In this document: piece by piece, positions 8,995 through 51,669 of the stretch
How the letters are laid out: the number at the start of each line of letters is the position of its first letter
Position numbering within the stretch: the first letter of the stretch is position 1
Source of the DNA: an uncultured Methanoregulaceae archaeon
GTDB lineage: Archaea; Halobacteriota; Methanomicrobia; Methanomicrobiales; Methanospirillaceae
Reading direction: 5' to 3'
Assembly: GCA_963737635.1 (NCBI GenBank)
Contig: CAVTTL010000001.1
Coordinates: forward strand, 1,312,001 to 1,376,000
DNA length: 64,000 nucleotides
The notes under the pieces: model-generated
What the model saw: the letters and a program-made list of their open reading frames with translations, nothing else
Told to the model about the DNA's origin: nothing
Database searches by the model: none
Position numbers and translations under genes: made by a program

Positions 8995-9169
8995 CGAATC
9001 TCTCCATCGTTGGTTTGCGCTGCCGGGATATAAAGCACCGCGCGTCGCCGTTAATCTTAGCCTGCAGTGATTACGGTCTTTTCTACAGCCACGACCAATA
9101 TAAGGTTTTATCGTGCTTCGGACACAATAATACAGCCATATCGCGAATCTTTCCGCAGGAGCGTAGGGT

Positions 9170-10237
9170 ATGATTTCACTCCGGTTTTACCGCATCTATG
9201 ATATCGGGCGGGAGATCGATATCGACTGGCTCGAGAAGTCTCTTGCCCGGAATTATTTCACGGCCCGGTCGAGTTTTGTCCGGGTCAAGCCCAAATCCAT
9301 CATGATCGAATCGTCCCCGATCCTGATCCGTATGCTGCCAATTACGGTGGAGCGGGAAGGACGCTCGTTTGAATTCTCCGCGGTTGCCCGGGTTTATGAT
9401 ATCGGGGTCATCAGCCTCTGTTTCATTCACGAGAACCCGGAGGCAGATCATGACAAGCTCGAATACCTTGCGTTCCTGTTCGCCGGCCAGGAAGGGCTTT
9501 CGGATTTCTTCCTCCAGTATCTTTCTACGCTGGGTGAGATCATCAAGCCGCATATCAAAAATTTTGCCATCGATCCGGACTTCTACGAGGACTACACGAT
9601 TTATGTGACCGATCGGCGGGACGATTCAATCGATCCGGTGCCCCTTCTTCTTGGAGACCGGACCTGTGTATCCCCCCAGATCCGCGAAGACATCATAAAA
9701 AATTCTCTCAGTTATTCCGATGAGGACCTGGCGGTGATTTCGTGGGATTCTGCGCTCTTATGCGGTCCCGAGAGCCCGACAGATCTTATCGATCTTATCG
9801 AGTTTGCAAACGTGCAGGTGCTCGAACTGAGATACTATGACCGGGAGCTTACCCGCGAGATGGCGCGGATGTATGACGATATCGAGCATGCGGACCGGTT
9901 GTCTTGGTTCAGCCGGAGCCGCAAGTACCACTCCATTATGAAACACCAGATGAAGACGTCCGCGGAGATCTCGGAGACGATTGAAAAGGTTGATAACCTG
10001 ATCAAAGTGACCGAGGATATCTATTACGCCCGTGTCTATTCGGCCGCATTAAAGATCCTCCGCAGTGGTCAGTGGAGCGAGAGCGTTAGTAGGAAAATTA
10101 ATGTGATCCGCGAGAACTATTCGATGCTTTCTGATGAAGTTAGGATCGAGCACTCAAATTTCCTTGAGTGGGTGGTGATCCTCCTGATCGCATTCGAGAT
10201 TTCTGTAATGCTTTGGGAGCGTGCGTGGTCCTTGTGA
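9170..10237 (+). CDS. Conserved hypothetical protein, RMD1/DUF155-like
   Basis: 355 aa, AGGAG SD, C-terminal LEWVVILLIAFEI helix typical of this family. Confidence 0.65.
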   Translation: MISLRFYRIYDIGREIDIDWLEKSLARNYFTARSSFVRVKPKSIMIESSPILIRMLPITVEREGRSFEFSAVARVYDIGVISLCFIHENPEADHDKLEYLAFLFAGQEGLSDFFLQYLSTLGEIIKPHIKNFAIDPDFYEDYTIYVTDRRDDSIDPVPLLLGDRTCVSPQIREDIIKNSLSYSDEDLAVISWDSALLCGPESPTDLIDLIEFANVQVLELRYYDRELTREMARMYDDIEHADRLSWFSRSRKYHSIMKHQMKTSAEISETIEKVDNLIKVTEDIYYARVYSAALKILRSGQWSESVSRKINVIRENYSMLSDEVRIEHSNFLEWVVILLIAFEISVMLWERAWSL

Positions 10238-10320
10238 CGGAAGCACGTTTTCATATGAAAAGCAGGCTGGAATGTGACAACTCGTCGGCCTGAGAGATTT
10301 AAAACGCCGAGAAAAAAGAA

Positions 10321-10668
10321 TTACAGGTAACGGTTCTTCCGCAGCCAGTCTACCTGAGGCGGCAGGTACCGGTAGATAATATCGCACTTATCGTCTTGGA
10401 AACTCCACGGGACAATAATCAGGGTGTCCCCTTCGCGGATCCAGACGCGTTTTTTAATCTTGCCTTTAATTCGTCCCATACGGGTGACCCCGTCGAAACA
10501 TCGTACCCGTATGTGGTTTGCACCCATCATCAGGTCGGCGGAACCAAACATTTCATTATTCCATTTCTTGGGAAGCCTGACCCGGACAAAAGGTGTACCA
10601 TCGGGATTAAAACCTTCAGGTTCCCCAGTTTCACCACTACCGCCTTTTTTCTTTGCATTATCGGTGAT
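10321..10668 (-). CDS. eif1A: Translation initiation factor aIF-1A, probable ATC start
   Basis: VRVRLPK..EMF..GANHIRVRCFDG..RIKGKIKKRVWIREGD..PW.FQ; frame open to TGA at 10683-10681 with no ATG/GTG/TTG upstream of 10551; GAGGAG 8 nt before ATC 10668. Confidence 0.92.
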   Translation of the reverse strand: MTDNAKKKGGSGETGEPEGFNPDGTPFVRVRLPKKWNNEMFGSADLMMGANHIRVRCFDGVTRMGRIKGKIKKRVWIREGDTLIIVPWSFQDDKCDIIYRYLPPQVDWLRKNRYL

Positions 10669-10784
10669 GCCAACAACTCCTCATATATAAATGGCGTTGA
10701 GAATAATTAACGTATCCATCCGTACACCCTCTAATACTGGTGCAGATTCATACCTGTATTTCTGAATGTTTTTCCTTATTGCTT

Positions 10785-11906
10785 TTAGCCGCCTTCCGGC
10801 TCATCAGGGCCAAAAAGTGTCTGCTGCCGTGAATCCTGCCGTTTCAAGCATGAGAGCCGCAGGCCGATGCGCCTTATTTTCGTTCCATTGAAGAGTTCGC
10901 GGAGAAGTTCTTGTGAACCCCCCCGGATCGTTTCCTTATCATCATGATAATGAATCAGAGTCTTTGCTTTTGTTTTTGTTACAAATCCTTCGGATCGGAT
11001 TCTGACGGTGATGGTTTTGAAATAAAGGTTTTCTTTAGCAAGGGACTGGTACGCCTCTTCTATGAGGTCTTCCATAGTGGCGACAATCTCACCGGGATCC
11101 CGAGTATCCTGTTTAAAGGTGGTCTCTTTTGAGAGAGATTTTATATCGCCACGCTCAACAACTTCGTCCCCGTCAGCGCCGAGAGCAGCTTCGTGTAGCA
11201 CTACCGCTGCTCGCCCGAAGTGCCCGAGAAGCCTCTGAATATCGTATGTGGCAAGTTCACCGATGGTATGTATCCTCAGTGTCTCCAGTTCTTTCTCAGT
11301 TTTACTCCCTATCCCTGGGATCTTACGGACCGGCAGGGGTGCAAGAAATGAAGGAACATCTGCGGGTTTCACGACGGTCAGGCCATCGGGTTTTTTGAAA
11401 TCCGAGGCCATTTTTGCAACAATCTTCGTCGGAGCAAGACCGAGCGAACAGGTGATCCCGCACCGGCCGCGGATCTCCTTTTTCAGGTATTCTGCTAGTT
11501 TCTGCGACTCAAAAAAACTACCGGCAGGACTCAGATCCAAAAATGCCTCGTCAATGCTCACCTGCTCGAACCGGAACTCCGTTGATCTAAGAATTACCAT
11601 GATCTCTTCAGATACCTCTACATAGCGGGACATGTGAGGACGAAGAAAGACCGCTTCAGGACAGAGCCGGTATGCCTGAGATATGGGCATTGCAGACTTG
11701 ATACCGTACTTCCGTGCCTCGTATGAGCAGGTGGCAACAACGCCCCTCCCGGTACCCCCCTGAGGATCGGCACCAACCACAACGGGTTTTCCGGCATGGC
11801 ATGGGTGATCGTGCATCTCGACGGCTGCATAGAAACAGTCCATATCGGCATGCAGGATAATTCTGCAAGGGTTAACAGGTGTATCACCTGTCGTTACCCC
11901 GGTCAT
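10785..11906 (-). CDS. dinB: DNA polymerase IV (Y family)
   Basis: ILHADMDCFYAAVE, CSYEARKYG, SIDEAF, KMASDFKKPDG; C-terminal QQTLF. Confidence 0.95.
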   Translation of the reverse strand: MTGVTTGDTPVNPCRIILHADMDCFYAAVEMHDHPCHAGKPVVVGADPQGGTGRGVVATCSYEARKYGIKSAMPISQAYRLCPEAVFLRPHMSRYVEVSEEIMVILRSTEFRFEQVSIDEAFLDLSPAGSFFESQKLAEYLKKEIRGRCGITCSLGLAPTKIVAKMASDFKKPDGLTVVKPADVPSFLAPLPVRKIPGIGSKTEKELETLRIHTIGELATYDIQRLLGHFGRAAVVLHEAALGADGDEVVERGDIKSLSKETTFKQDTRDPGEIVATMEDLIEEAYQSLAKENLYFKTITVRIRSEGFVTKTKAKTLIHYHDDKETIRGGSQELLRELFNGTKIRRIGLRLSCLKRQDSRQQTLFGPDEPEGG

Positions 11907-38554: not shown

Positions 38555-40000
38555 TCATTCTTTCAAGCATTCAAGTGTGCTTGTATCCTCTTCAATCCTG
38601 CTGTGGTGCCGGCTGTAAAGGACGTAGATCACGAGGCCGACGGCAAGCCAGAGTACGAATCTCAGGTGGGTCACGAGCGGCAGTGCAACGATCAGTAAAC
38701 CGCAGGAGAGGATGCAAAAAACCGGCACAAAGGGGACAAACGGGCACCTGAACGGCCGGGGTAGCGATGGTTGCGTGTGACGGAGGACGATTATGCCAAG
38801 CGAGACAATCATGAATGCAGCAAGCGTTCCGATGTTGACAAGCTCGGCGATGGCAGTTAGCGGGAGAAAGCCGGCGATGAGCGCGATGACGGCACCGACA
38901 AGGATAGTGACCTTGGCCGGGGTCCGGTAAACGGGATGGATCTGCCGGAAGATCCCAGGGAGCAGGCCGTCCCTTGACATGGCAAAGAAGATGCGGGTCT
39001 GCCCGTACAGGAGCACAATGATAACGGAGGTGATCCCGCAGATTGCCCCGACCGAGATCAGCGCGGATCCCCACGAGATCCCAATCTGTTCAAGGGCAAA
39101 AGCAACCGGGGCACTCGTCCCCGCAAAGAGTGTGTAAGGAACGATCCCGGTGAGAACTGCGGAGACGGCAATATAGAGCACGGTCGCGATTGCAAGCGAT
39201 GAAAGAATGCCAAGAGGTACGTCCCTTTGCGGGTTTTTGACTTCTTCTGCTGCAGTCGAGACTGCATCGAAACCGATATAGGCAAAAAAGACGATCGCTG
39301 CCCCAGTAAGGACACCGCTCCAGCCAAACGGCATAAATGGTACCCAGTTAACCGGCCGGATATGTCCGAAGGCGAGGTACAGGAAGAGAAGGATCACGCC
39401 AAGCTTTATCGCGACAATCACCGTGTTGACACGGGCACTCTCCCGTACTCCGATGATGAGCAGAACGCTTACTAAAAGGACGATGATCATTGCCGGGAGA
39501 TTGACCCGTCCCCCGCTTGTACCGGGTGGGTTTATGAATGCAGCGGGTATTATGATCCCTGCACCTGCCATGAGGCTTGTGGCATACCCGGACCCACCGA
39601 CCGCCACAGCTGCAATGGAAACCCCGTATTCGAGGATCAGGTCCCAACCGATGATCCAGGCCCAAATCTCACCGAGCGATGCATAGCTGTACGTATACGC
39701 GCTTCCGGCGACAGGAACCATCGCGGCAAACTCCGCGTACGAGAGGGCGGCAAATGCACAAACGATGCCGGCGATGATAAAAGAGATGACAAGTGCCGGC
39801 CCGGAATAGTTCGCTGCCACCAAACCGGTAATGACAAAGATACCGGTACCGATAATGGCACCGATACCCATGAGCGTCAGATCGAGCGGCGAGAGGACCT
39901 TCTTAAACGCGTGCTCGCCACCGGTACACTCCATGAGCTTGTCGACGGTTTTGGTCCGGAAGGCCCGGGTATTTTTTGGGATGAGTGCCCTGAGGTTCAT
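38555..40000 (-). CDS. APC family amino acid permease
   Basis: GAIIGTGIF, GSAYTY, FFAYIGFDA, RPFRCP; about 12 TMs. Confidence 0.92.
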   Translation of the reverse strand: MNLRALIPKNTRAFRTKTVDKLMECTGGEHAFKKVLSPLDLTLMGIGAIIGTGIFVITGLVAANYSGPALVISFIIAGIVCAFAALSYAEFAAMVPVAGSAYTYSYASLGEIWAWIIGWDLILEYGVSIAAVAVGGSGYATSLMAGAGIIIPAAFINPPGTSGGRVNLPAMIIVLLVSVLLIIGVRESARVNTVIVAIKLGVILLFLYLAFGHIRPVNWVPFMPFGWSGVLTGAAIVFFAYIGFDAVSTAAEEVKNPQRDVPLGILSSLAIATVLYIAVSAVLTGIVPYTLFAGTSAPVAFALEQIGISWGSALISVGAICGITSVIIVLLYGQTRIFFAMSRDGLLPGIFRQIHPVYRTPAKVTILVGAVIALIAGFLPLTAIAELVNIGTLAAFMIVSLGIIVLRHTQPSLPRPFRCPFVPFVPVFCILSCGLLIVALPLVTHLRFVLWLAVGLVIYVLYSRHHSRIEEDTSTLECLKE

Positions 40001-40043
40001 GAGTATGCCATCATTATTTTATAGCAGTTGATCAGGAATACTC

Positions 40044-40787
40044 TCACACCTCAATCGTTGTCCCATCCTCAGATATCACTAAGCCCGGGCATTCCTTTTC
40101 AAACTGTCCCTTCAGGGCCCGGCGTTCTTCAAGGGTATGGTACACCTCTGCCCCGAAATGCGTTAGTGCAAGGCGTTTTGCCTTGGCCACTTCGGCGATA
40201 TGGATCGCATCTTCGGGATTCAGGTGCTGCCAGTCCGGGCTTTTCTGCCCGGGCTTTAGCCCGCACTCGGTGATGAGAAGATCGGCGCCGCGGGCAAGAG
40301 TGATTGCGTTGTCGCAGATGCCGGTGTCGGTGCAGTAGGTAACGATCTTACCGTCAATCTCGAACCTGAACCCCCGGCAAGGAACGGGATGGACCAGCGG
40401 CAGGGAAGTGATCTTAAAAGGAAGTTCATGGACGCCGTCGGTGAGTTCCTTCACTGTGACCGCGAAGGGGACTTTGTCAAGCGGCACCGTGTAAGGATCG
40501 CGGACAAGCCCTGCAAGATCTGCCTTTGTGCCGACCTGTCCGCAAATTGTCAGCCCTTTCCTGAACCGGAACTTCACCAGCGTGTGGAGCCCTTCGGTAT
40601 GGTCGAGGTGGAAATGACTGATGAACAGGAAGACCGGCTTATCCTGCGAAATATACCGGTTAGCCTTTGCGATACCGTTTCCAGCATCAAGGATGATATT
40701 GCAATCCTGTGCCGAAATCAGGGCCGAGACCGTGTTCCCGGTGGCGGAGTCGTACCAGCCGTTTGTTCCAAGAAAGGTAACCTTCAT
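40044..40787 (-). CDS. MBL-fold hydrolase (RNase Z-like)
   Basis: FLGT.G, LDAG.G, SHFHLDH, YCTDT, LTH. Confidence 0.85.
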   Translation of the reverse strand: MKVTFLGTNGWYDSATGNTVSALISAQDCNIILDAGNGIAKANRYISQDKPVFLFISHFHLDHTEGLHTLVKFRFRKGLTICGQVGTKADLAGLVRDPYTVPLDKVPFAVTVKELTDGVHELPFKITSLPLVHPVPCRGFRFEIDGKIVTYCTDTGICDNAITLARGADLLITECGLKPGQKSPDWQHLNPEDAIHIAEVAKAKRLALTHFGAEVYHTLEERRALKGQFEKECPGLVISEDGTTIEV

Positions 40788-40958
40788 ACCCGGAACTTGG
40801 CCTTCTTTCATCATCAAGGTGCAGGTACCTGGGAGATTGCTGTGAGGGACTAACCCGTTCTCGCGCTTTTCCTGTGAGATCGATCACAATCTCCATGTAC
40901 CAGGGCGCCGCAATGGTAATCAGATGCAGGTAATTCCCGCACCGGAGCGTGGCCGCCT

Positions 40959-41804
40959 ATGGCACCGGTAAGAGTCGGCGTACATGTCTCAATCGCCGGT
41001 TCGCTCGATCTTGCCGTCGACCGGGCAAAGGATGCCGGCTGCGATGTCTTCCAAATGTTCTCGCGCAACCCCCGGGGATGGGGGTTCAAGCCGCTCGCTG
41101 ACGATGACTGCACCCTTTTCAAGCAGAAAATCAAGACGACCGGTCTTCTCCCGGTCGATCATATGCCCTACCTCCCCAACTTCGCATCCCCGAAGTCCGA
41201 GAATTGGGATAAATCGGTGCAGACCCTTCAGGCTGAACTCGATCGATGCGGGCGCCTCGGCATTCCGTATCTTGTCACCCATCTTGGCCATCACCTCGGG
41301 GACGGGATCGCGGGAGGAAGAGCGCGGGTGATAAAAGCAGTAAACACAGCGCTTGAAACATCAGATAATGACGTAATGCTGTTACTTGAAAATACCGCCG
41401 GCGAGAAGAACAGTGTCGGTAGCAGTTTCGAGCATATTCAGGCGATCATCAACGGGATTGAAAAAAGCGACCGGGTTGGCATATGTTTCGATACCTGCCA
41501 CGCATTCGCCGCTGGGTACGAGCTGCGCACCGAGGATGGTCTTGCTGCCACCCTTGTACAATTGGACAAGACCCTGGGTATCGATCGGCTCAAGGTCATC
41601 CATGTCAATGACACCAAAGGCGATCTTGGGAGCGGCCTTGACCGGCACGAGCATATCGGTATGGGGTTCATCGGCGAAGATGGCTTTCGTCGCATCCTTC
41701 ACAACCCGGTCTTCTCCCGACTCCCGCTCATCTGCGAAACGCCGGTAGATGACCGAAGAGACGACCGGGGCAATATTCAGGCAGTGCGGGACCTTGCCCG
41801 ATAA
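40959..41804 (+). CDS. nfo: Endonuclease IV
   Basis: GVHVSIAG, H.PYL.N, LLENTAG, CFDTCH.FAAGY, DRHEHIG.G. Confidence 0.95.
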   Translation: MAPVRVGVHVSIAGSLDLAVDRAKDAGCDVFQMFSRNPRGWGFKPLADDDCTLFKQKIKTTGLLPVDHMPYLPNFASPKSENWDKSVQTLQAELDRCGRLGIPYLVTHLGHHLGDGIAGGRARVIKAVNTALETSDNDVMLLLENTAGEKNSVGSSFEHIQAIINGIEKSDRVGICFDTCHAFAAGYELRTEDGLAATLVQLDKTLGIDRLKVIHVNDTKGDLGSGLDRHEHIGMGFIGEDGFRRILHNPVFSRLPLICETPVDDRRDDRGNIQAVRDLAR

Positions 41805-41810
41805 TTTTTT

Positions 41811-42014
41811 TTAATATCGCCGGATATGAGTGATGCGCTCTTCACTTACCGGTTGTTCGTAGTACTCCGGTGAATAGATTCGCTCTTCCACGACTCCTGC
41901 TGCCTCTTCGAGGTTTTTGGTCATTGCCAGGCATTCAGAACCGTGCGCTCCATTAACTTTAACCTGTATTCTTCCTTCCTTATCGATCACGATCTCCATT
42001 TCCTGCATTTCCAT
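41811..42014 (-). CDS. DUF2997 family protein
   Basis: 67 aa, I..EG...V.G..G..C...T..LEE..G.V.....EYY; AGGAGG SD. Confidence 0.85.
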   Translation of the reverse strand: MEMQEMEIVIDKEGRIQVKVNGAHGSECLAMTKNLEEAAGVVEERIYSPEYYEQPVSEERITHIRRY

Positions 42015-42032
42015 GATTTTTTCCTCCTTTTG

Positions 42033-43652
42033 TCAAGTCAATTGGTGCACCGGTGCATCTTTTCTCATGAGCGTACCGGTCACGAGGTCGCGGGCCGTGA
42101 CGCGCAGTTTTCTTTCCCGGTCGAGCGTGAACGTCAGCTCGAACCGCGGTTCGCCTCTCATCGCCGGCGGATCGGCGATGAGTAATGTAGGCGCCTGTGT
42201 GTTTACCAGGATCGGCCTGCTACCGATGCCGGAATCTCCTTGGGGCCCGACAAGACGAACTCCACCGGCAGTGTCCGAGACGAGCTCAAGTGAAAGCGCA
42301 TGCGCATCCGGCGAGCTCCTGATCTCGTACACAGGGATCCCGAGCCGGGTCTGGCCATCGTAGGCGGCACTGATGGTGACGCGGGCGACTTGGCCTGCGC
42401 TCGGGTAGGGGGCCCCGGAACGCACAAGGAACCGGTACCGGTGCTCCCGGCTTTTTGAGTCCCAGTACCGGAGCGCATAATCGTTTTTGATTTGGGAAGG
42501 TAAAATTGTACGAGGCAGAAAAAGTGCAGTTCCGCGGGCAATGGCATCGAACGGATGATCGGACAGTACAGGTATTCCCGCGTATTTTTTTTTCACGATA
42601 TTCTGGACGGCAGGTATCGCACAACCACGGCCGGTCATCAGGATCGCGACAGGCAGTATCTCTCCGTATCCGTGGGAGGTGGCAGCTGCCCGCGCACAGG
42701 TGATAGTACAATCCAGGATTGACTCAACCCCATGCTCCTTTAGGATCCGGCCAACATCATCCCGGGAAACTCTGACCGGGACCGTTGTTCCGGAAGGCGG
42801 ATCTTCAATCTGGATGATAGCATTGTCTTCAGATGTCAGTTGTCCGTACAGCTCCCCGATCCTGTCATTAATCCCATCACGTAACCTCTTGTTTTTTACT
42901 CCGGTGAACTTTCTGTTGTTCCGGGCGAGTACATCCTGCGCAATCCAGCCATCGACTGCTTTACATCCTGTATTATCGGAAGCAGTACCAATCACCTGCG
43001 GTCCCCTGTCCGGTGCATCATCGAAAAGTACGAAGCGTGCGGTGAAGTCTGTCTCATCCCAGCAGATAATGAGATATACATGCCCTGCTTCCGGAGATAC
43101 CCCGTACCCGGCAACGATGGCAGCCGGTTCGGTGAGCGTGTGCCAGGACCTGATGCCTTGAGCATGAGCAATACCTCCAAGCCATTCGGTGTACCATCCC
43201 GGCGCGTCCGTGGGAATGGCAAAGACCGCCGATGAACACCCGGGATACTCCCGCGTCGCCCGGGCTATAACGGCAGCAAGGAAATCCGCTGCTGCATCGT
43301 GGAATGTGATCCAACGGTCCGCACCGATCGGGATCCGCACCGGGCTTTCCTCCAGCAGGTATCTCCGGATCCATCGCGCGGTTGCGGGATGATCGGCATT
43401 TCCCGCACGCACCACTTCGTCGCCGATGGTCTGGCCCCCATCCTGATCATAATGGATCAATACTGGCACTATGTGGACCGATCTGCCGGTTCCCGCGCCG
43501 GGTACTTCCTGCGACAAGCCGGGAAACTTCTGGGTGTTATACTTGCCATCGTTCCGTATTGAAATGCCGATAACTAGCGAACCGACCCCGAAGTCTATCC
43601 CAAGGCGAACTGCCGGTCTGGGGGATTGTGCGTACCTGCCCACCATGGTCAC
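42033..43652 (-). CDS. Divergent Hsp70-family protein
   Basis: LGIDFG, LTEPAA, MTGRG..IP.VQ, DAIARG, RFELTFTLD..L.VTARDL; phosphate-2 motif degenerate; no lid. Confidence 0.75.
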   Translation of the reverse strand: MTMVGRYAQSPRPAVRLGIDFGVGSLVIGISIRNDGKYNTQKFPGLSQEVPGAGTGRSVHIVPVLIHYDQDGGQTIGDEVVRAGNADHPATARWIRRYLLEESPVRIPIGADRWITFHDAAADFLAAVIARATREYPGCSSAVFAIPTDAPGWYTEWLGGIAHAQGIRSWHTLTEPAAIVAGYGVSPEAGHVYLIICWDETDFTARFVLFDDAPDRGPQVIGTASDNTGCKAVDGWIAQDVLARNNRKFTGVKNKRLRDGINDRIGELYGQLTSEDNAIIQIEDPPSGTTVPVRVSRDDVGRILKEHGVESILDCTITCARAAATSHGYGEILPVAILMTGRGCAIPAVQNIVKKKYAGIPVLSDHPFDAIARGTALFLPRTILPSQIKNDYALRYWDSKSREHRYRFLVRSGAPYPSAGQVARVTISAAYDGQTRLGIPVYEIRSSPDAHALSLELVSDTAGGVRLVGPQGDSGIGSRPILVNTQAPTLLIADPPAMRGEPRFELTFTLDRERKLRVTARDLVTGTLMRKDAPVHQLT

Positions 43653-46452
43653 CCGGCAATCTGGATATCGTACATTCCGGCGTCCCGGTATGTCGGGCAG
43701 AGTTCAATCTCGTTTTGGAATCTGATGGATAACAGATTACAGAGAAATCTCCACTGGTTCGTCGTGGCATTCGTGCCGGTTGCCTGCTCCTGTTCCCGTG
43801 CGAGAGCAAGGTCAGCAAGGGTAGTCTGTGAAAGGGGCCGCATAAAGGGAACCCGGAAAACATGGATCATCCCATCTATGCCGCTGGTGACAATGCAGTC
43901 TCCACTCTTTATGGCAGCGATTCCGGTGACTGCACCTGCGTGAGCCGGGATGGTCCGGATCAGGAAGTGCCCGTAGAGAGCATAGAACGCAAGGGCGCCA
44001 TGGTTATATCCTGCCGCTATTGCGAGCCCGTCATCAGTGAACGTGAGGGTAGTCGGCCTTCCCGGGATCTGCGGGATCGTCCCGGCGGCGGTTCCTTCAG
44101 GTAGATGGTATAGCCGTATTACGGGATCGGCACCCGCTGCGGCAAGGAAGGTACCATCCCGGGAAATAGCGCAGGCGCTCACTTCATGTTTGGCATCCCG
44201 GAGAACGATACTTTTCTTTTCCCCGTTAAGCTGCCAGATCCTGAGGGTCGTGTCGTTACTCCCGGTCACAAAAAGGCGTCCTTGTGGGTCAATGCAGCAG
44301 CAGGTTATATTGCTCGAATGACCGAGCAGCGTAGCTATCGGTTTCCCACCGGATATACCCCGGATCCTCACTGCTCCGTCCCAGCCGCAGGATATGAATG
44401 TCTCTGTATCCGGTAAGAAAGCAAGGCACCTAGCGGTGGTTGTAAGACTTTCGCATGTGGCAACAAGGCCGCCTTTTGCAAGGTCCCAGATACGGAGACT
44501 TCTGTCTTTCCCGGCACAGGCAAAATATTCCCTGTCAGGGCTGACCGCAAGTGCCCTGACTGACGGCGTGTACACATCAATAGATCTGACAAGGGTGCCG
44601 TCTTCCCGGGAGAAAATGCAAACCCTGCCGTCCGTAGTCCCGGCGACTATTCCGTTGCCAGCCGCGCCGGATGTGAGGGAAAAGGCGGTTACCGCACCGG
44701 CCGGCGCCGGAGTGTACGGAGCAGTTCACCGGAGGGAATGCTTCGGAGGGTGACGGTGCCATCCCCTCCCGCGCTGGCAAGCAGTTTTCCGTCAGGAGAG
44801 ATGACACAGGCAGTAACTGTTTGTCTATATCCCCGGAATTCTTTTATCCGCAGCCTTTCAGGAACGCTGAAAAAGTATATGGTGCCCTCGTTGCAACCGG
44901 CAATCGCCAAAATGCCGTCAGGTGTAAAGGCACAGCATGTCGGAAGGCGGTTGTAAAAGGGGAGTTCTGCTGTCGGGTTCTTCTCTGTCCAGTTCCAGAA
45001 CCGGAGTACGTGATCATTGCTACCGATTGCGGCCCTGCGGTTTTCTGCCGATATCGCGTGGCAGCTGGGATGACCGGAGAACGTGGTGAATGTTCTCACG
45101 GTGATGCCGCTGTTTCCGTCTTTAAGTACGGGGAGGAAACGTTCATACACCACGAAAAGTCTGATCGGCCTGTTCTGTGTACGCGAGAGCCCGGATTGCG
45201 TCACCCGTGCCCGATACGGTCCATGTCTCCACTCCGCTTACAGTGTCTTGGCAGCGGATGGTCCCGTCAGCATAACCACAAGCAATGCTCTTACCCCCAT
45301 GGGCAGGGGAAATGGCAACGACCCGGGAAGGGTGCCCCTGAACTGCCAGCAGCGTTTTACCTGTCCGGCACGCGATGCGGATCGTCTTTCCGCTACTATC
45401 CCCGGCAATAATCTCCTCGCCGTTACCTGACATTGCCACACAGGAAATGGAATGGTCTTTATCAGCGTACGACCAGACTGTGTTTCCTTGGGGAATGCCG
45501 TAGCAGGTGAGCGTGCCGTCGTTCCCTCCGGAGATGATGTAAGAATTGTCAGGTGTGATCGCAAGAAAACCGATGGGTCCGGCGTTTGTGGTGATGGACG
45601 TAATGAGCCGGGCTGATGAGACCTGCCAGATTTCCATCTTCCCGTCGCTGTCAGCCGGCTGCGAGGAGTGTGCCGTCGCGGGAGAATGCAAGATTCAGGC
45701 ACTGGCTATCCTGATTTCCCATTGATACGAGGGGTTTTTCTGACATTGGGGGGATCCACGCTTCCGGCGAGCTCGCGGATCAATTCCTCAAAGACTTGGC
45801 CTTCATCACCACCCGGTCTCCAGCCAGCGATCTTCATGGAGTTCAGTGCCGCGATTGCAAGTGACAGTGGCGCACAAACGACCAGCTGCCACAAGACATC
45901 CCATGCCCGATCTTCGGTCAGGCCTGAGATGACCGCCTCCCACTCGCCATACGACCATCTACGGGCACCACGTGCCGGATCCGTTCCCATCAGTGCACAT
46001 GCAAGAATCCCGCCCATGCCGGTACCGGAGGAATAGTGGAGCGCCCGGGTTTTGATCCTGTCCGGTGCTGCGGCATACCCGCGGGCGAGAAAAGGATGAT
46101 AGGGGTCAGGATCAAGTCGGCACAATGCCTCATGCTGTCCGGTAATATACAAGAAGAGCGCCCGCAATCCCGGCTCCGAGGGAGTATATCCTCTGTCTGT
46201 TGCAATTTTTTCAAGTAACGGATCCTGATGGATCAACACCTCGTTACAGAACACATCGATTGCGTCCGGTGATGAAAGGGCGCCCAAGGTATTGAACGCG
46301 ATCTCCTGTGAATACGCATATGAGTCCGCTCTGGCAAGAGCGGTGAGTTCGCGGACTGCCTCTAGGTTCCCGCTCTTTACCTTATCAATAACGCCGCTCA
46401 ACCGCCGGTACAATAAGGGGCCGATAACCGGAAATGTGGGGGCGATCTTCAT
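43649..46452 (-). CDS. Large WD40-repeat protein with N-terminal helical (HEAT-like) region; about 4 frameshifts
   Basis: Many GH..V...SPDG..L.S.S.D.T.R.W repeats distributed over ORFs 45143-45691, 44689-45204, 44577-44807, 43649-44575; ATGA overlaps at both ends. Confidence 0.8.
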
Positions 46453-48018
46453 AAAGGTTCACGAGCGCCTGCGTCGAATGTCTCCAGCACAATGGTTTTC
46501 CCATTCCCTGAATGTCGCGCGGCTGCCCGCGATGCAGACTGCGCCCGCCCCTCGGCGAGCCAGGCCCGGAGTACCGCCACCGTCTCCCGCTGCGAGACGG
46601 AAAGAGGCACCTGCGTCTTTATGCAGCAGAGGATATCAGCGGTCGTGACCCGGCGCATGTTTTCGCTGAACGCTTGGTACATTGCGTCGATGATTGTCTG
46701 TTCGATCTCGGCTCCGACATATCCTTCGCTCTCCTGTGCAAGGATATCAAGGTCGAACTCCGTGGGGACACACTTGCGTTTCTTGAGGTGTACAGCGAAG
46801 ATCTCGCGCCGTTCTTCAAGGGTGGGCAGGTCGAGGAAGAAGATCTCGTCGAAACGCCCCTTCCTCAGTAGTTCCGGTGGAAGGGCGGCGATATTGTTCG
46901 CCGTCGCTACCACGAAGCAGGGGGAAGTCTTGTCCTGCATCCATGTGAGGAGATGGGCAAAGACCCGCTGGCTCGTGCCGGCATCCCCGCTGCCAAACGC
47001 GAACGCTTTCTCGATCTCGTCCACCCAGAGAATGCATGGGCTGATCGTCTCGGCAAGCGACAGCGCGCGGCGTGTTCTCTCCTCGGATTCACCGACAAGG
47101 CTGCCAAAGAGCGCCCCCACGTCGAGCCTGAGCAGGGGCAGGTGCCAGAGATCCGCAATCATCTTTGCGGTGAGGCTTTTACCCGTGCCCGGGATGCCGA
47201 TCAGCGCGATGCCTTTGGGTACCGGGAGTCCGAAGTCTCGGGCATCCTGCGTGAACGCCCGCTCGCGCAGGAAAAGCCAGTCCTTGAGAACCGCGAGGCC
47301 TCCGACGTTCTCCAGGGTCTCAGTATAACTGTAAAACTCCAGCGCGTCCGAGGCGCTCAGGATGTCTTTCTTGTCTGCGATGATCGCATCGATGTCCCGG
47401 TCATCCAGGGTACCGTGGGTGACGATCGCCTTTGAGAATGCCCGGCGTGCCTGATTGAGGGTCATGCCAAGGGCTGCCTGAATGATCTTTTCACGACCGG
47501 CAGGCGAAAGCGAACAGGTGATACCGCTTGTGGCGAGCAGGGTGTTGAGGTCTGCAGAGAGCTCGGCCGCTGTGGGTGGAGGGAAATGCACAATTACTGC
47601 CTCGTCCCGGATTTCTTCCGGTACCCGGGTGGTCGGTGTCAGGATCACGATCGTGCGCCGGTTGTACCGGAAAGCCTGGGAGAAATTACGGATGCGTCGT
47701 TTCACCTGGGGGTTGTTCCAGGTACTCGTGGAAATCCTTGAGGATAATAACGGCATCGTCGCCCGTCTTGACGATGTTGTCAAGCGCCGCGAGCGGATCC
47801 CGCGACTGGTTCAGGAAATTCTTATTGCCGGCGATGACAGAAAATCCGTCAACGCTGTCCCACGCAATGCACTGGCGGGGAGGATCCCAGCTCTCGCAGA
47901 CGTTCTGGATTTGTGATACCACTCGTTCTTCTTCCGGGGTGATCACGACGATCAGGGTGACCCGGGCCCGAAGCGAGACGTTGAGCCTGCGGGAGAAATC
48001 GGGTTCGGCAAGATTCAT
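46449..48018 (-). CDS. Ycf46-like AAA+ ATPase; frameshift near 47730
   Basis: N-terminal T.EE.R..WD..G..ILKDFH domain; VGGL..LK.W, GIPGTGKS, ILWVDEIEK, TAN, LLRKGRFDEIFF. Confidence 0.88.
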
Positions 48019-48021
48019 AGC

Positions 48022-48420
48022 CTATTTCCACCTCCTGACAACGATGCGCACGGTTCCGTCAATCTCTTCGGTCTCGGAGACAAGGTCAAAGCCATTCGCA
48101 GCAGTCTGTTTGAGTACCATTTTTCTAGCGTATTCTTTCTGGATTGTTTCCGCCTGTTGTTTCAATTCTTCGGCAATCTTTTTCTCGTTTTTTCCTGAAA
48201 TTCCCCACCAGTCCGCGACAAGGTCGTACGTGCCGTCAGGGTTCTTGACAAAGCCAAGCCCGTACGCTTTGTTTGTTTTCGCGGCTATGTCCACGTTGTG
48301 TTGGCCGTGATATCCTTTGATTGTGGTATTGTTTTCAACTGTGTAGCCGAGTTCCTGTAGGCATTGGATCAGTGCCTCGTGATGCCTGAATGTCGTCTTG
48401 ATACGGCTGAAATGCGAGAT
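48022..48420 (-). CDS. DUF1257 (Ycf35-like) protein
   Basis: Frame extends upstream of the called ORF to (I)SHFSRIKT..ALIQCL.ELGY..GF...DG.YDLVADWW..Q.Y; start is ATC 48420, or ATG 48428 if one base is missing. Confidence 0.85.
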   Translation of the reverse strand: MSHFSRIKTTFRHHEALIQCLQELGYTVENNTTIKGYHGQHNVDIAAKTNKAYGLGFVKNPDGTYDLVADWWGISGKNEKKIAEELKQQAETIQKEYARKMVLKQTAANGFDLVSETEEIDGTVRIVVRRWK

Positions 48421-48424
48421 GGTG

Positions 48425-49047
48425 TCATCCCCCCCGGAAGCAGGAGGCGAGCTGCCGAATCATATGTTTACAGGGAAAACCGGTGATCGTAGCAATACCG
48501 CCGGGTGCAATAGAAAATTCAACCGTTTCACCGTGCGCTTGAGTGCACACATCACCGCGGATGTTTCCGGTCAGCGGAATAATCTGCTGGTTTGACGACC
48601 CGATGTACGGGCTATCGCAGGGCAGGATGTTTACATACGGGCCGGCGATGAGAAGATCCGTGATCTCCAAGAGCCGGTGCCAAGCAGGATCAGTGCTCGA
48701 TGTAAGTTGTTCGTACGTGTATCCCGTATATGTCACGACCGTTCGCCTTGCTCTCCGGATCCGCTCTCCCACATATGCAAGTGCATCTGCCTGTGCGAAG
48801 GGCTCTCCTCCGGAGAACGTGGCGCCATCGATATCTTTGATGCCAAGGATCCGCCGGTGATCTCGTCAGCAGAAACCATATGGACAGGAGAAGACGACCA
48901 GAGTGCCGGGTTGAAACACTCTTTACACCGGATCGGGCACCCCTGCACCCAGATGACGGCCCGGATGCCGGGACCGTTTGCGGTTGACCTCGCAAGAAAA
49001 CCCGCGAGGTTGAGTTCTCTCCTGCGTCGGCATCCGTGATCGTTCAT
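48425..49047 (-). CDS. NrdG-like radical SAM (activating-enzyme family) protein; frameshift near 48855
   Basis: NGPGIRAVIWVQGCPIRCKECFNP, TFSGGEPFAQ, YTGY, D.LIAGPY, GSSNQ. Confidence 0.85.
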
Positions 49048-49353
49048 CTGATGCACCATCATTTTTCCGCCACTACGTCTTGGCTGCTGAAATGATTTCC
49101 GGTTTGTGTGATCGGTGTATCTTATAGTATCACCTAACTATTCCCGGAATGAAAATTACCCTTGGGGACGTGCAAATTAGCATACTTATGAGATACAATC
49201 TGACTATACAGGTTCGATTTTTACCTTTTAATAAGCACTGTTCCGGAGTTTTGGAATTCATAAGGATTTCGATCAGGAAATGCAGGGATGCGCGCAGGAT
49301 CAGATCCCGTTTTCCCGCTCTCTTATAACCATTCGGTAACAATAGATCCGGCA

Positions 49354-50364
49354 GTGAAGGCGACATTTGATGGCACTTCGGTGCTGATCGGTAGAGACGG
49401 GCGGGTGTTGTACGACCAGAGTGGATACGGGCGTCCCGAAGGCGAAGGGGTACGCCTTGCACCGCAGGAAGCATTGTACCTGTTGCACCGCCAGAAGATC
49501 GAAGTCGATGACTATACGTTCGATACCCTTCTTTCCGAATACGCGGACCAGCCCAACTTCCTGCGCAGGTTTCTTGTGTACCGCGATCTACGGGAACGCG
49601 GGTATGTCGTCCAGACCGGTCCCCATGATTACCGGGTATTCCGGCGCGGCGAAAAACCGGGGACCGGGGAATCGCTCTACCTCGTCCGCGTCCTCTCGGA
49701 ACGCGATCCGATCCGGTTTACCAAGTTGATTGAGGAAGTGGTCACGGCAAGAAATATGCGCAAGCAGTATGTCCTCGCGGTTGTCGACGATGAAGAAGAA
49801 CTGACCTATTACGAGATCAAGCTCCAGAAACTGACCGGCTCCGAACTTCCTGCACCTGAAACCGGCACCTGCGATGCAGTGCTGGTAGGCAAGTCTGCGA
49901 TGATCCGGGTACCCCCGCAGTCCGATCTGGAAAAGGCCGGCTTTGGGAAACGGTTAGACGAGGAGCGGCTCATGCTCTCGCCGGTCGAGCTCCTGTACCT
50001 TGCAGGGAGGGGGCTCGTCCGCATTACAAAAGACGGCACTTCTCTGACCGTGGAAGAATTTTTTGCAGCCGCTAAAGAAAGCGACCAGGAACTTGCCGCA
50101 AAAGACAAGGTTTATACCGAGCTGCGCCGGCATGATTTCATTCCCCGGACCGGCTACAAGTTTGGCCATCATTTCCGGGTGTACTGCGGAAAGAATGTGC
50201 ACTCGGATATGCTGGTACATGCAATAGAAAAAGAGGCCGTACTTCCCATGAGTGTCATCTCCCGATCGGTTAGGATGGCGCACAGTGTCAAAAAGAAGAT
50301 GTTGTTTGGCTGTGTACATATCACCGGAATCCAGTTCGTCGAATTCGCGCGGATAAAACTTTGA
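49354..50364 (+). CDS. endA: tRNA-splicing endonuclease (alpha2, two-unit type)
   Basis: Two repeats, VYRDLRERGY and RTGYKFGHHFRVY..H..R.AHSVKK; GTG start. Confidence 0.93.
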   Translation: MKATFDGTSVLIGRDGRVLYDQSGYGRPEGEGVRLAPQEALYLLHRQKIEVDDYTFDTLLSEYADQPNFLRRFLVYRDLRERGYVVQTGPHDYRVFRRGEKPGTGESLYLVRVLSERDPIRFTKLIEEVVTARNMRKQYVLAVVDDEEELTYYEIKLQKLTGSELPAPETGTCDAVLVGKSAMIRVPPQSDLEKAGFGKRLDEERLMLSPVELLYLAGRGLVRITKDGTSLTVEEFFAAAKESDQELAAKDKVYTELRRHDFIPRTGYKFGHHFRVYCGKNVHSDMLVHAIEKEAVLPMSVISRSVRMAHSVKKKMLFGCVHITGIQFVEFARIKL

Positions 50365-50397
50365 AATCTCTCTCAAAATTTCCCCTAATCTAGTCCT

Positions 50398-51669
50398 GTG
50401 AGTGAACCCGGTATGCCAGAATCTTCGATCAATCCATGGTCAAGCACCCCCTCTCTCGACATTGAAAAGACATTTGCCGAGTTTGGCATCGACCCGATCG
50501 CCCCGGTGCTTTCCGAATTGCCCGAGATCCCGTACTTCATGCGACGCGGTATTGTGGTAGGTCAGCGTGACTACCTCCCGATAGCCCGCGCGATACGGAA
50601 CCACACGCCGTTTCATCTCCTGACCGGGTTTATGCCAAGCGGCCACCCGCATCTCGGTCACCTCATGCTTATGAAGGAAGTGGTCTGGCATGTGCAGCAG
50701 AGTGCAAACGGGTACGTGACGATTGCCGACCGGGAAGCCTATGCGGTGAGGGGCCTTTCCTGGGAAAAATGCCGGGAATATGGGAAAGAGTACCTTTCCT
50801 GCCTCTATGCTCTGGGTTTCAAGGGAGAGACCTATTTCCAGAGCAAAAACGACCGGCTCAAGGACCTTGCGTTCGAGGCAGCGACAAAAGTGAATTTTTC
50901 CGAACTTACCGCAATCTATGGGTTTTCTCCGGAGACAGCGCTTGCCCATGCGGATAGCGTCGTTACTCAGGTGGCAGATATCCTGTTCCCGCAGGTCGAG
51001 AGAGAACCGGCCCCGACGTTAGTCCCGGTGGGAATTGATCAGGACCCCCATATCCGGCTAACCCGGGGGATCGCCCACAAGTTCCGGATGTTCACGGTCG
51101 AGGAGCGCGATGGGTACATCAGCGTGCGGTCGAAGAATGCCCCCGAAGCGGCGCTGGACGCGATCAAAAAGGCGTTTCCCCATGCGAAAAAATACGAAGG
51201 CCACGTAGACATCAAGGAGGCAGAATGCGCCGATGTCAGTGCAAAGGCCAGGGAGATTGAGCGAGCCTGTGGCGGGTATGCATTCTATACACCCTCATCC
51301 ACGTATCACATCTTCCTGCCCGGCCTTACCGGTGGCAAGATGTCATCCAGTATTCCCGAGAGCCTGATTACCTTTTTCGAGCCGGAGGCGGCGGTGCGAA
51401 AAAAAGTGATGAGCGGTCTTACCGGTGGCAGGATGACGCTTGAAGAGCAGCGACGGCTTGGCGGTGAACCGGAAAAGTGCACGCTCTTCCTGCTCAACAT
51501 GTTCCATATGGTGACCGACGATGCAAAACTTGCGGAGCTTCGGCGCAAGTGCCGGACGGGCGAGATCACCTGCGGGCAGTGCAAGAAGGAGACCGCAGAC
51601 CGAGTCGTGGCATTTTTAAAAGACTTCAAGGAGAAGATAGACGTGGCAGCAGAGACAATCGAGGTATGA
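50398..51669 (+). CDS. trpS: Tryptophanyl-tRNA synthetase
   Basis: TGFMPSG.PHLGH, Q.ADIL, VG.DQDPH, KMSSS. Confidence 0.95.
   Translation: MSEPGMPESSINPWSSTPSLDIEKTFAEFGIDPIAPVLSELPEIPYFMRRGIVVGQRDYLPIARAIRNHTPFHLLTGFMPSGHPHLGHLMLMKEVVWHVQQSANGYVTIADREAYAVRGLSWEKCREYGKEYLSCLYALGFKGETYFQSKNDRLKDLAFEAATKVNFSELTAIYGFSPETALAHADSVVTQVADILFPQVEREPAPTLVPVGIDQDPHIRLTRGIAHKFRMFTVEERDGYISVRSKNAPEAALDAIKKAFPHAKKYEGHVDIKEAECADVSAKAREIERACGGYAFYTPSSTYHIFLPGLTGGKMSSSIPESLITFFEPEAAVRKKVMSGLTGGRMTLEEQRRLGGEPEKCTLFLLNMFHMVTDDAKLAELRRKCRTGEITCGQCKKETADRVVAFLKDFKEKIDVAAETIEV

Follow-up and report, generated by a model that had tools for sequence, protein, structure and literature searches.

A conserved six-gene operon of an uncultured archaeon that joins a Ycf46-type ATPase, DUF1257, and DUF2997 to an Hsp70-like protein, a WD40 protein, and an NrdG-like radical SAM enzyme

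Six genes lie side by side between two housekeeping genes of an uncultured Methanoregulaceae archaeon, a soil methanogen (GenBank assembly GCA_963737635.1, contig CAVTTL010000001.1, positions 1,312,001 to 1,376,000; this stretch of 64,000 nucleotides is the window, and the coordinates of the operon count from its first letter). They encode an NrdG-like radical S-adenosylmethionine (SAM) enzyme, a DUF1257 protein, an AAA+ ATPase, a HEAT-like/WD40 protein, an Hsp70-like protein, and a DUF2997 protein, and they raise the question of whether such an unusual assortment is one system and, if so, what that system does. Our results indicate that the operon is conserved and is undescribed in the literature searched; its protein families are known ones, but their arrangement has no match among catalogued systems. 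As to its action, the reading that we favor, tentatively and at somewhat less than even probability, is that the six proteins make up one receptor-gated AAA+/Hsp70 protein-remodelling switch.

That the genes belong together is evident from their inheritance. Among 171 genomes of the archaeal family, each at least 80% complete, DUF1257 was found in 66, the beta domain of the Hsp70-like protein in the same 66 and as a broken relic in one more (G360), and the radical SAM gene in the same 66 together with two weak unrelated matches, the gene being absent from 103 at E 1e-20. The six-gene set is co-inherited and is kept or lost whole. Within the genus, the Hsp70-like gene was strongly matched in 14 of 36 genomes, and no strong match turned up in 24 genomes taken from the order's other families; the six-gene order is kept in 13 of the 14 same-genus loci, which puts the gene set far beyond chance, and the same order is seen in all eight further loci of the family, one of them truncated behind the WD40 gene, where its contig stops. 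Seven of these eight adjoin endA-trpS-pheS, and in four of five genomes lacking the set, the junction between nfo and endA is clean, the two genes being no more than about 310 nucleotides apart. Outside the family, DUF1257 was present in 1 of 281 genomes of the phylum. The genes are also under purifying selection: the ratio of nonsynonymous to synonymous substitution rates (dN/dS; one to three species pairs per gene, DUF2997 left out) was 0.04-0.05 for the AAA and DUF1257 genes, 0.10-0.12 for the Hsp70 beta domain and 0.20-0.22 for its nucleotide-binding domain (NBD), 0.16-0.22 for the radical SAM gene, 0.24-0.25 for the WD40 gene, and 0.04-0.07 for the housekeeping flanks. Two decaying copies were seen within the family, one in G014 (L033, 4600-8000), where the WD40 gene and the N-terminal half of the Hsp70 gene are lost and three of the remaining genes carry stops, and one in G360 (L176, 7200-8600), where only Hsp70-like and DUF2997 fragments are left.

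The same set occurs in bacteria. At E 1e-30, a profile search for the Hsp70-like subfamily returned 281 cluster representatives, and a scan of GTDB genomes with a 15-row Hsp70-like alignment gave 504 loci, of which the best 80 were taken. All six genes are present in 14 of these 80, namely 13 bacterial loci from five phyla (6 Chloroflexota, 3 Actinomycetota, 2 Planctomycetota, 1 Verrucomicrobiota, and 1 deltaproteobacterium) and one from Methanolinea, and DUF1257 or DUF2997 is present in 28. Five of the six genes, together with grpE, lie on a Pseudanabaena plasmid. The gene order is reshuffled between phyla. The initial annotation of this locus, made from the sequence alone, would have been refuted had the genes not co-occurred in other genomes; they do co-occur there, and they travel as one unit. 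A variable WD40/Hsp70 slot, for which it proposed a test, was not supported within this subtype: the pair is conserved across the five bacterial phyla, and variation lies between subtypes. In one genome the set is split over two contigs, with the HEAT-WD40, Hsp70-like, DUF1257, and DUF2997 genes on one and the radical SAM and AAA genes on the other (L059 and L181, the latter in G467 at 2-2091). In a FastTree phylogeny of 56 AAAs (midpoint root; seven loci omitted as near-duplicates or for an unrelated AAA), the Hsp70-linked AAAs group in one clade (support 0.978), and the archaeal AAAs form a clade (support 1.0) nested inside it, which suggests that the archaeal set was acquired by a single transfer from bacteria.

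The core of the set, consisting of the AAA, DUF1257, and DUF2997 genes, also travels on phages and plasmids. All three have PHROG families, the AAA is found in 57 phage and 78 plasmid records, and both small genes are present in 18 of 40 IMG/VR loci. Viral scans with DUF2997 alone or with a DUF1257 alignment gave no confirmed relative, while the AAA scan found relatives. A partner of about 300 aa, one member of which weakly matches DUF3150, accompanies the core in 22 of 43 viral loci and was found in no cellular locus searched; since the phage core has this different partner, the accessory set changes between subtypes and not within the one described here. Of the phage proteins, Corndog gp96 was detected in infected cells, its function not being stated in the accessible text (PMC4351075).

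The arrangement of the locus itself argues for a coupled and intact operon. The six genes are on the minus strand between nfo (endonuclease IV, 40959..41804, plus strand, Pfam AP_endonuc_2) and endA (tRNA splicing endonuclease, 49288..50364, plus strand, Pfam tRNA_int_endo), the latter followed by trpS and pheS; both flanks are outside the system. From the radical SAM stop to the DUF1257 start there are 4 nucleotides and from DUF1257 to the AAA gene 3; the AAA and WD40 genes share an ATGA overlap and the WD40 and Hsp70-like genes a GTGA overlap, and 18 nucleotides separate the Hsp70-like gene from DUF2997. These coordinates and junctions agree with the tight co-directional coupling noted at the outset; the radical SAM start moved from 49047 to 49062, where relatives begin MMVH. 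Pfam gave Fer4_12, DUF1257, AAA plus lid, WD40, a weak MreB/Mbl match, and DUF2997 across the six genes, each of which is single-copy in the assembly (G000; 2.46 Mb, 4 contigs, 90% complete), and the GC content of 54-58% is near that of the flanks. A promoter and terminator scan gave 5 and 7 sites against 4.0 and 6.2 expected. Six single-base indels interrupt the reading frames, at 48852 in the radical SAM gene, at 47721 in the AAA gene, and at 45769, 45652, 45160, and 44702 in the WD40 gene. When short-read contigs from four runs of four studies were aligned to positions 40000-51000, the contigs spoke against each indel in 2 to 4 of the 4 runs, at least one of them other than the possible source run. 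All six are therefore assembly errors, and the operon is intact: the frameshift repair called for by the initial annotation yields open reading frames (ORFs) of 212, 522, and 933 aa that are free of internal stops and sized as in relatives. The NrdD and NrdG2-like genes elsewhere in the assembly are likewise split. DUF1257 has no ATG, its first codon being ATC (48420-48418, minus strand) after a G-rich stretch; contigs of all four runs cover this codon without a difference, and the starts of 37 relatives, read by pattern, are 33 ATG, 3 GTG, and 1 CTG. The ATC may be either a real near-cognate start or a weakened allele.

The ATPase (46449..48018, minus strand, 522 aa) is a protein that we take to belong to the Ycf46 family; no Ycf46 model matched it in NCBIfam. 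It matches PHROG 8638 across residues 9-504 (about 500 aa, with an N-terminal domain bearing LKDFH and one classic AAA domain) and is 62% identical to a cyanobacterial plasmid AAA. Its second AAA domain is predicted to be active, as the Walker A (GIPGTGKS), Walker B (WVDEIEK), and arginine finger (LRKGRFD) motifs are intact and invariant or nearly so in 11 rows, and its first AAA-like domain is degenerate (hhalign of the N-half against the C-half, E 3e-4). The pore loop reads GSLVG and has no aromatic residue, in contrast to the aligned SKYYG and SKWVG of VAT, and among the pore-loop variants of 56 AAAs only one of the eight commonest has Phe (4 rows). By inspection, the AAAs end in a short hydrophobic-acidic tail.

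The two small proteins probably form a complex, or one composite cofactor. DUF1257 (Ycf35-like; 48022..48420, minus strand, 132 aa, Pfam E 1e-22, PHROG 20456) was modeled through the G019 orthologue (predicted local distance difference test score [pLDDT] 82) as a KA1/TBP-like alpha/beta domain with a C-terminal hairpin, and its N-terminal Ser-His is nearly invariant. Its best structural match (Z 7.7, root mean square deviation 3.0, 80 residues aligned) is tied with several others, none reaching Z 8; Foldseek found nothing in PDB at E 0.001 and only two unnamed viral proteins in BFVD. DUF2997 (41811..42014, minus strand, 67 aa, Pfam E 4.5e-15, PHROG 23133) consists of a beta-hairpin, a G-x-x-G-x-x-C motif, and a helix, and in 46 rows G25 and G40 are invariant and G14, G22, and C28 are kept in at least 90%. 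A DUF1257/DUF2997 complex, which had already been supposed, is likely because the two are naturally fused at the viral loci L130, L139, and L140 (L139 and L140 are near-identical) and because their co-fold scored 0.47 against 0.04 for the best control, a result that the tool grades as weak support. The co-fold runs agree in at least 82% of contacts, with partner pLDDT at least 50; in the benchmark, 116 of 157 solved pairs and 2 of 215 mismatched ones attained the mark, those at or below 0.60 including only 18 of these solved pairs and both mismatches. An Atlas cluster of 207-aa proteins, 71% DUF2997 (score 0.79), is a lead only for a further fusion. An alignment that combined fused with single genes came out misaligned and was not used for folding, and a link between a GY motif in DUF1257 and the presence of the radical SAM gene was dropped, as copies without the enzyme keep the motif. 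Among other viral arrangements, L164 (8706-9380) holds a DUF2997 in one open frame with an upstream region that, by eye, resembles an HNH/AP2-like endonuclease, and on the large viral contigs L133 and L134 (4864-9538) two DUF1257-DUF2997 pairs flank one AAA.

The Hsp70-like protein (42033..43652, minus strand, 539 aa) has an AlphaFold model (pLDDT 78) with an NBD and a beta substrate-binding domain that matches DnaK/Hsc70 over both (Foldseek E 1.5e-27, about 550 columns, 15-18% identity). It has no helical lid, the model ending in strands at residue 537. All 21 of 21 bacterial copies of the system have the phosphate-2 motif (DxGGGT), as does the Methanolinea copy. In other genera of the family it was seen at 2 of 5 loci, and the 12 same-genus copies all lack both this motif and the adenosine GG motif (0 of 12 rows). 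The Hsp70 had been called degenerate from the start; judged by these motifs, that description holds for this genus and some sister genera and not for the bacterial versions. A GrpE-like gene was present in 13 of 34 loci examined, with Pfam GrpE in L038, L055, and L071, and there was none in the archaeal operon; within one archaeal family, an active ATPase may have turned into a pseudo-ATPase and lost its GrpE. Elsewhere in the genome there are three GrpE matches over the Pfam cut-off (C1:1161651, 1837204, and 2388952). Some Hsp70-like relatives are 880-950 aa long (L074 at 9001-11769, P0225, P0236, P0239, and others), and the long relative that was scanned has C-terminal HEAT repeats. The neighboring 933-aa protein (43649..46452, minus strand, Pfam WD40) combines a helical HEAT-like N-terminal region, WD40 beta-propellers, and a conserved acidic C-terminal tail; its bacterial homologues have HEAT_2 matches, and an Atlas search with the HEAT-like region gave no usable match.

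The radical SAM enzyme (48425..49062, minus strand, 212 aa, Pfam Fer4_12) keeps an intact CxxxCxxC, with C42, C46, and C49 invariant in 10 rows. Its best NCBIfam matches are glycyl-radical activases. The NrdG model TIGR02491 gave 99 bits on the G019 orthologue, below the 126.1 cut-off, and was above cut-off in none of the 20 genomes behind Hsp70-like loci. NrdD lies at C1:99135, more than 1.2 Mb from the operon; a separate NrdG2-like gene is also present in the genome, and no match resembling PFL was obtained. DUF2997 is directly upstream of the radical SAM gene in 13 of 15 bacterial loci. The enzymes of this system end in E-h-x-I-x-x-D-G-x-h-x-x-[TS]-G, which resembles the first DUF2997 hairpin (hhalign probability 47, E 2e-4), and the best window for the DUF2997 hairpin profile is this C-terminal extension in 28 of 29 system enzymes and in none of five ordinary NrdG controls (four NrdD-adjacent and one further), which lack the extension. 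For the NrdG-like genes of L188 and L189 the best window is not C-terminal. A hairpin common to four components was rejected, as only the radical SAM enzyme passed: the Hsp70-like, WD40, and AAA profiles gave E 0.16-0.55 against DUF2997, and DUF1257 gave probability 2. Similar enzymes stand in other settings. In G433, which belongs to the family but does not carry the operon, a cluster of PP2C, unknown, kinase-TPR, Clp-like AAA+, and FHA genes ends with an NrdG-like gene that has the hairpin tail (L175, 1-8687); in G025 a 729-aa AAA and three orphan ORFs, of which one is coiled-coil-like, precede a second NrdG-like gene (L173, 6560-14000); and on a Treponema succinifaciens plasmid an NrdG-like gene and a Ycf46 AAA lie between baseplate-hub-like and VgrG-PAAR genes (L040, 1414-13082).

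No match to a characterised pathway was found, and the anatomy of the six proteins fits the remodelling machine that had been imagined for them. Our results lead us to speculate that the Ycf46 ATPase, as a hexamer whose first ring is dead and whose pore loop is non-aromatic, would dismantle a specific complex rather than thread proteins for degradation, with the DUF1257-DUF2997 unit as its adaptor and the HEAT-WD40 protein as the client receptor. The private lidless Hsp70 would grip the receptor or the client through its beta domain; in bacteria it would cycle with a GrpE of its own, and in this genus it may act as a static clamp. The NrdG-like enzyme might dock at the site of DUF2997 through its look-alike hairpin and, once docked, set the switch by abstracting hydrogen from a component glycine under anoxia. 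Its most likely output would be a checkpoint, slowing or halting the cell when it is severely stressed or infected. In cyanobacteria, ycf46 operons are reported to be switched on under severe stress and to follow the arrest of growth (PMC7496141, PMC13683863).

Several observations weigh against this remodelling switch. Neither DUF1257 nor DUF2997 is present in 52 of the best 80 of the 504 Hsp70-like loci, which are mostly from a more distant cyanobacterial clade and in some cases on short contigs, and the clade of Hsp70-linked AAAs is partly an ascertainment effect, because the bacterial loci were picked by their Hsp70-like gene. The first AAA-like domain matches weakly (probability 40), and the single co-fold, that of DUF1257 with DUF2997, is weak too and yields no contacts. 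The likeness of the hairpins is moderate, as DG-turn hairpins are common and the sequences are kin, and its score exceeds the 95th percentile of the background in only 17 of 29 enzymes, so that the evidence lies in the position of the hairpin and not in its score. The cyanobacterial expression data concern another Ycf46 subtype, which has no Hsp70 or WD40 protein, and no client, receptor ligand, or output domain was identified.

A bolder version of the switch, which we consider distinctly unlikely, would make Ycf46-DUF1257-DUF2997 a portable AAA+ engine of phages, plasmids, cyanobacteria, plastids, and archaea into which modules plug by a common beta-hairpin. The subtype described here would then be a prokaryotic surveillance machine in which the private Hsp70 holds the HEAT-propeller receptor until the ATPase releases it, and on which an activase without a reductase writes an oxygen-sensitive glycyl radical as an on/off mark. 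If this were true, a glycyl radical would serve signalling and not catalysis, which would be a new use of glycyl-radical chemistry.

The main rival, unlikely in our judgment, is a dedicated anti-virus or anti-plasmid conflict system, akin to the NTP-dependent systems of multicellular prokaryotes, in which the propellers sense an invader protein and an ATP-gated assembly leads to suicide or dormancy; it differs from the remodelling switch only in invader specificity. It would account for the patchy all-or-none distribution, for a core carried by phages and plasmids, and for a WD40 gene that evolves about 5 times faster than the housekeeping flanks, and it gains from the bacterial loci, where the receptor gene is duplicated (L051, L053, L061, L062, and L085) or present in three to four tandem copies (Streptomyces L089) and where L075 has a co-directional gene of the FGE-sulfatase fold (Pfam), of which L078 has a homologue. 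The hairpin-tailed NrdG-like enzymes beside other AAA+ ATPases, a kinase-FHA set, and VgrG-PAAR genes point the same way. However, the enrichment near defense genes that the initial annotation had raised was not seen: in a survey of 120 of the 125 ORFs of at least 200 aa from 20 bacterial loci (chosen by a length rule, with no matched control set), 3 of 120 neighbors matched PADLOC at 1e-15, two of them generic, and the operon's own PADLOC 2.0 matches are only a generic IetA AAA and WD40. The site is fixed between housekeeping genes across genera, there is no nuclease, pore, or other effector, and dN/dS never exceeded 0.3 in the three pairs tested.

Alternatively, the operon might be a radical-enzyme or peptide-maturation unit, with DUF2997 as the radical SAM substrate forming a glycyl/thiyl-radical or metal site together with the N-terminal His of DUF1257, and with the ATPase and Hsp70 as assembly factors. 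The adjacency of DUF2997 to the radical SAM gene, the near-invariant Gly, Cys, and His, the activase-like NCBIfam matches, and a genome that has its own NrdD and NrdG2-like gene and nothing PFL-like are in line with it. We nevertheless find it improbable, since the same Gly, Cys, and His occur in phage and cyanobacterial copies without a radical SAM gene, the enzymes of L040 and L154 stand beside an AAA with no DUF2997 detected, and DUF2997 has no motif of the RVxGY type.

A general stress-recovery bi-chaperone in the style of DnaK-GrpE plus ClpB, rescuing aggregated or oxidised proteins without a specific client, is improbable as well and comes next. Hsp70, GrpE, and AAA+ genes do share one operon in bacteria, and the accessible reports on cyanobacterial ycf46 describe stress induction, but the Hsp70 is lidless and no J-domain partner was seen, the pore loop is non-aromatic, the ATPase motifs are lost in this genus, the genome has three other GrpE genes and a DnaK-like gene, and the 933-aa receptor and the radical SAM enzyme would be left unexplained. 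A decaying or chance cluster of pseudogenes or mobile-element relics, to which the six indels, the ATC start, and the decayed copies of G014 and G360 might have pointed, is very improbable, and the pseudogene reading was rejected, given that the indels are absent from the short-read contigs, that other genes of the assembly are split likewise, and that selection is purifying and the order is conserved across genera.

Among known systems, the NTP-dependent conflict systems of Kaur et al. (2020; PMC7159879) come close, and in the accessible text these comprise a MoxR-vWA ternary system and a GAP1-N2 GTPase with HSP70-GrpE. They share with the operon a chaperone-type NTPase core, superstructure repeats of the propeller and HEAT type, HSP70 accompanied by GrpE, FGS domains, and, in one of their subtypes, a radical SAM enzyme. 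In contrast to those systems, there is no MoxR, vWA, GTPase, or tubulin here (Pfam, NCBIfam, and PADLOC gave no match to MoxR, vWA, or a TRAFAC GTPase in the six genes), the ATPase is a classic-clade AAA, the archaeal operon has no effector domain, and its chromosomal site is stable. Receptor paralogues and FGE-sulfatase-fold genes, which might or might not count as variable effectors, are present in some bacterial loci. No description of the six-gene set was found in the literature searched, subscription papers and the supplements of PMC7159879, which may hold listings, being outside its scope.

The radical SAM enzyme has the short fold and CxxxCxxC of NrdG and is unlike the NrdG-NrdD pair in scoring below the family cut-off, in having no NrdD nearby, and in its C-terminal hairpin, which is absent from NrdD-linked enzymes. 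DnaK-GrpE with ClpB is a textbook system, and the operon resembles it in the Hsp70 fold of both domains and in the GrpE of the bacterial copies, whereas it differs in being lidless, in having no J protein seen, in the clade of its AAA+ protein, and in the loss of ATPase motifs in this genus. The closest solved relatives of the active AAA domain are the segregases Cdc48/p97/VAT, which have the tandem AAA layout in common with it; unlike Cdc48 and VAT, the operon AAA has a degenerate first domain, no separate N domain, and the GSLVG pore loop, and its operon partners are presumably unrelated to the Cdc48 cofactors Ufd1/Npl4.

Cyanobacteria and the plastids of the red lineage retain Ycf46 and Ycf35. 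The Ycf46 (slr0374, Synpcc7942_0417), Ycf35, and DUF2997 proteins found there are of the same three families as the core of the operon. In the accessible text of the reports on them, ycf46 belongs to a stress-induced three-gene cyanobacterial operon (PMC7496141, PMC13683863), DUF2997 and DUF1257 are neighbors in a DUF2997-ycf35-fed7 cluster (PMC4284462), and no mechanism is given for any of the three. In the anaerobic archaeon, by comparison, a single operon combines them with a HEAT-WD40 protein, a radical SAM enzyme, and a private Hsp70, and this operon names, as a compact set, the likely partners of Ycf46 and Ycf35.

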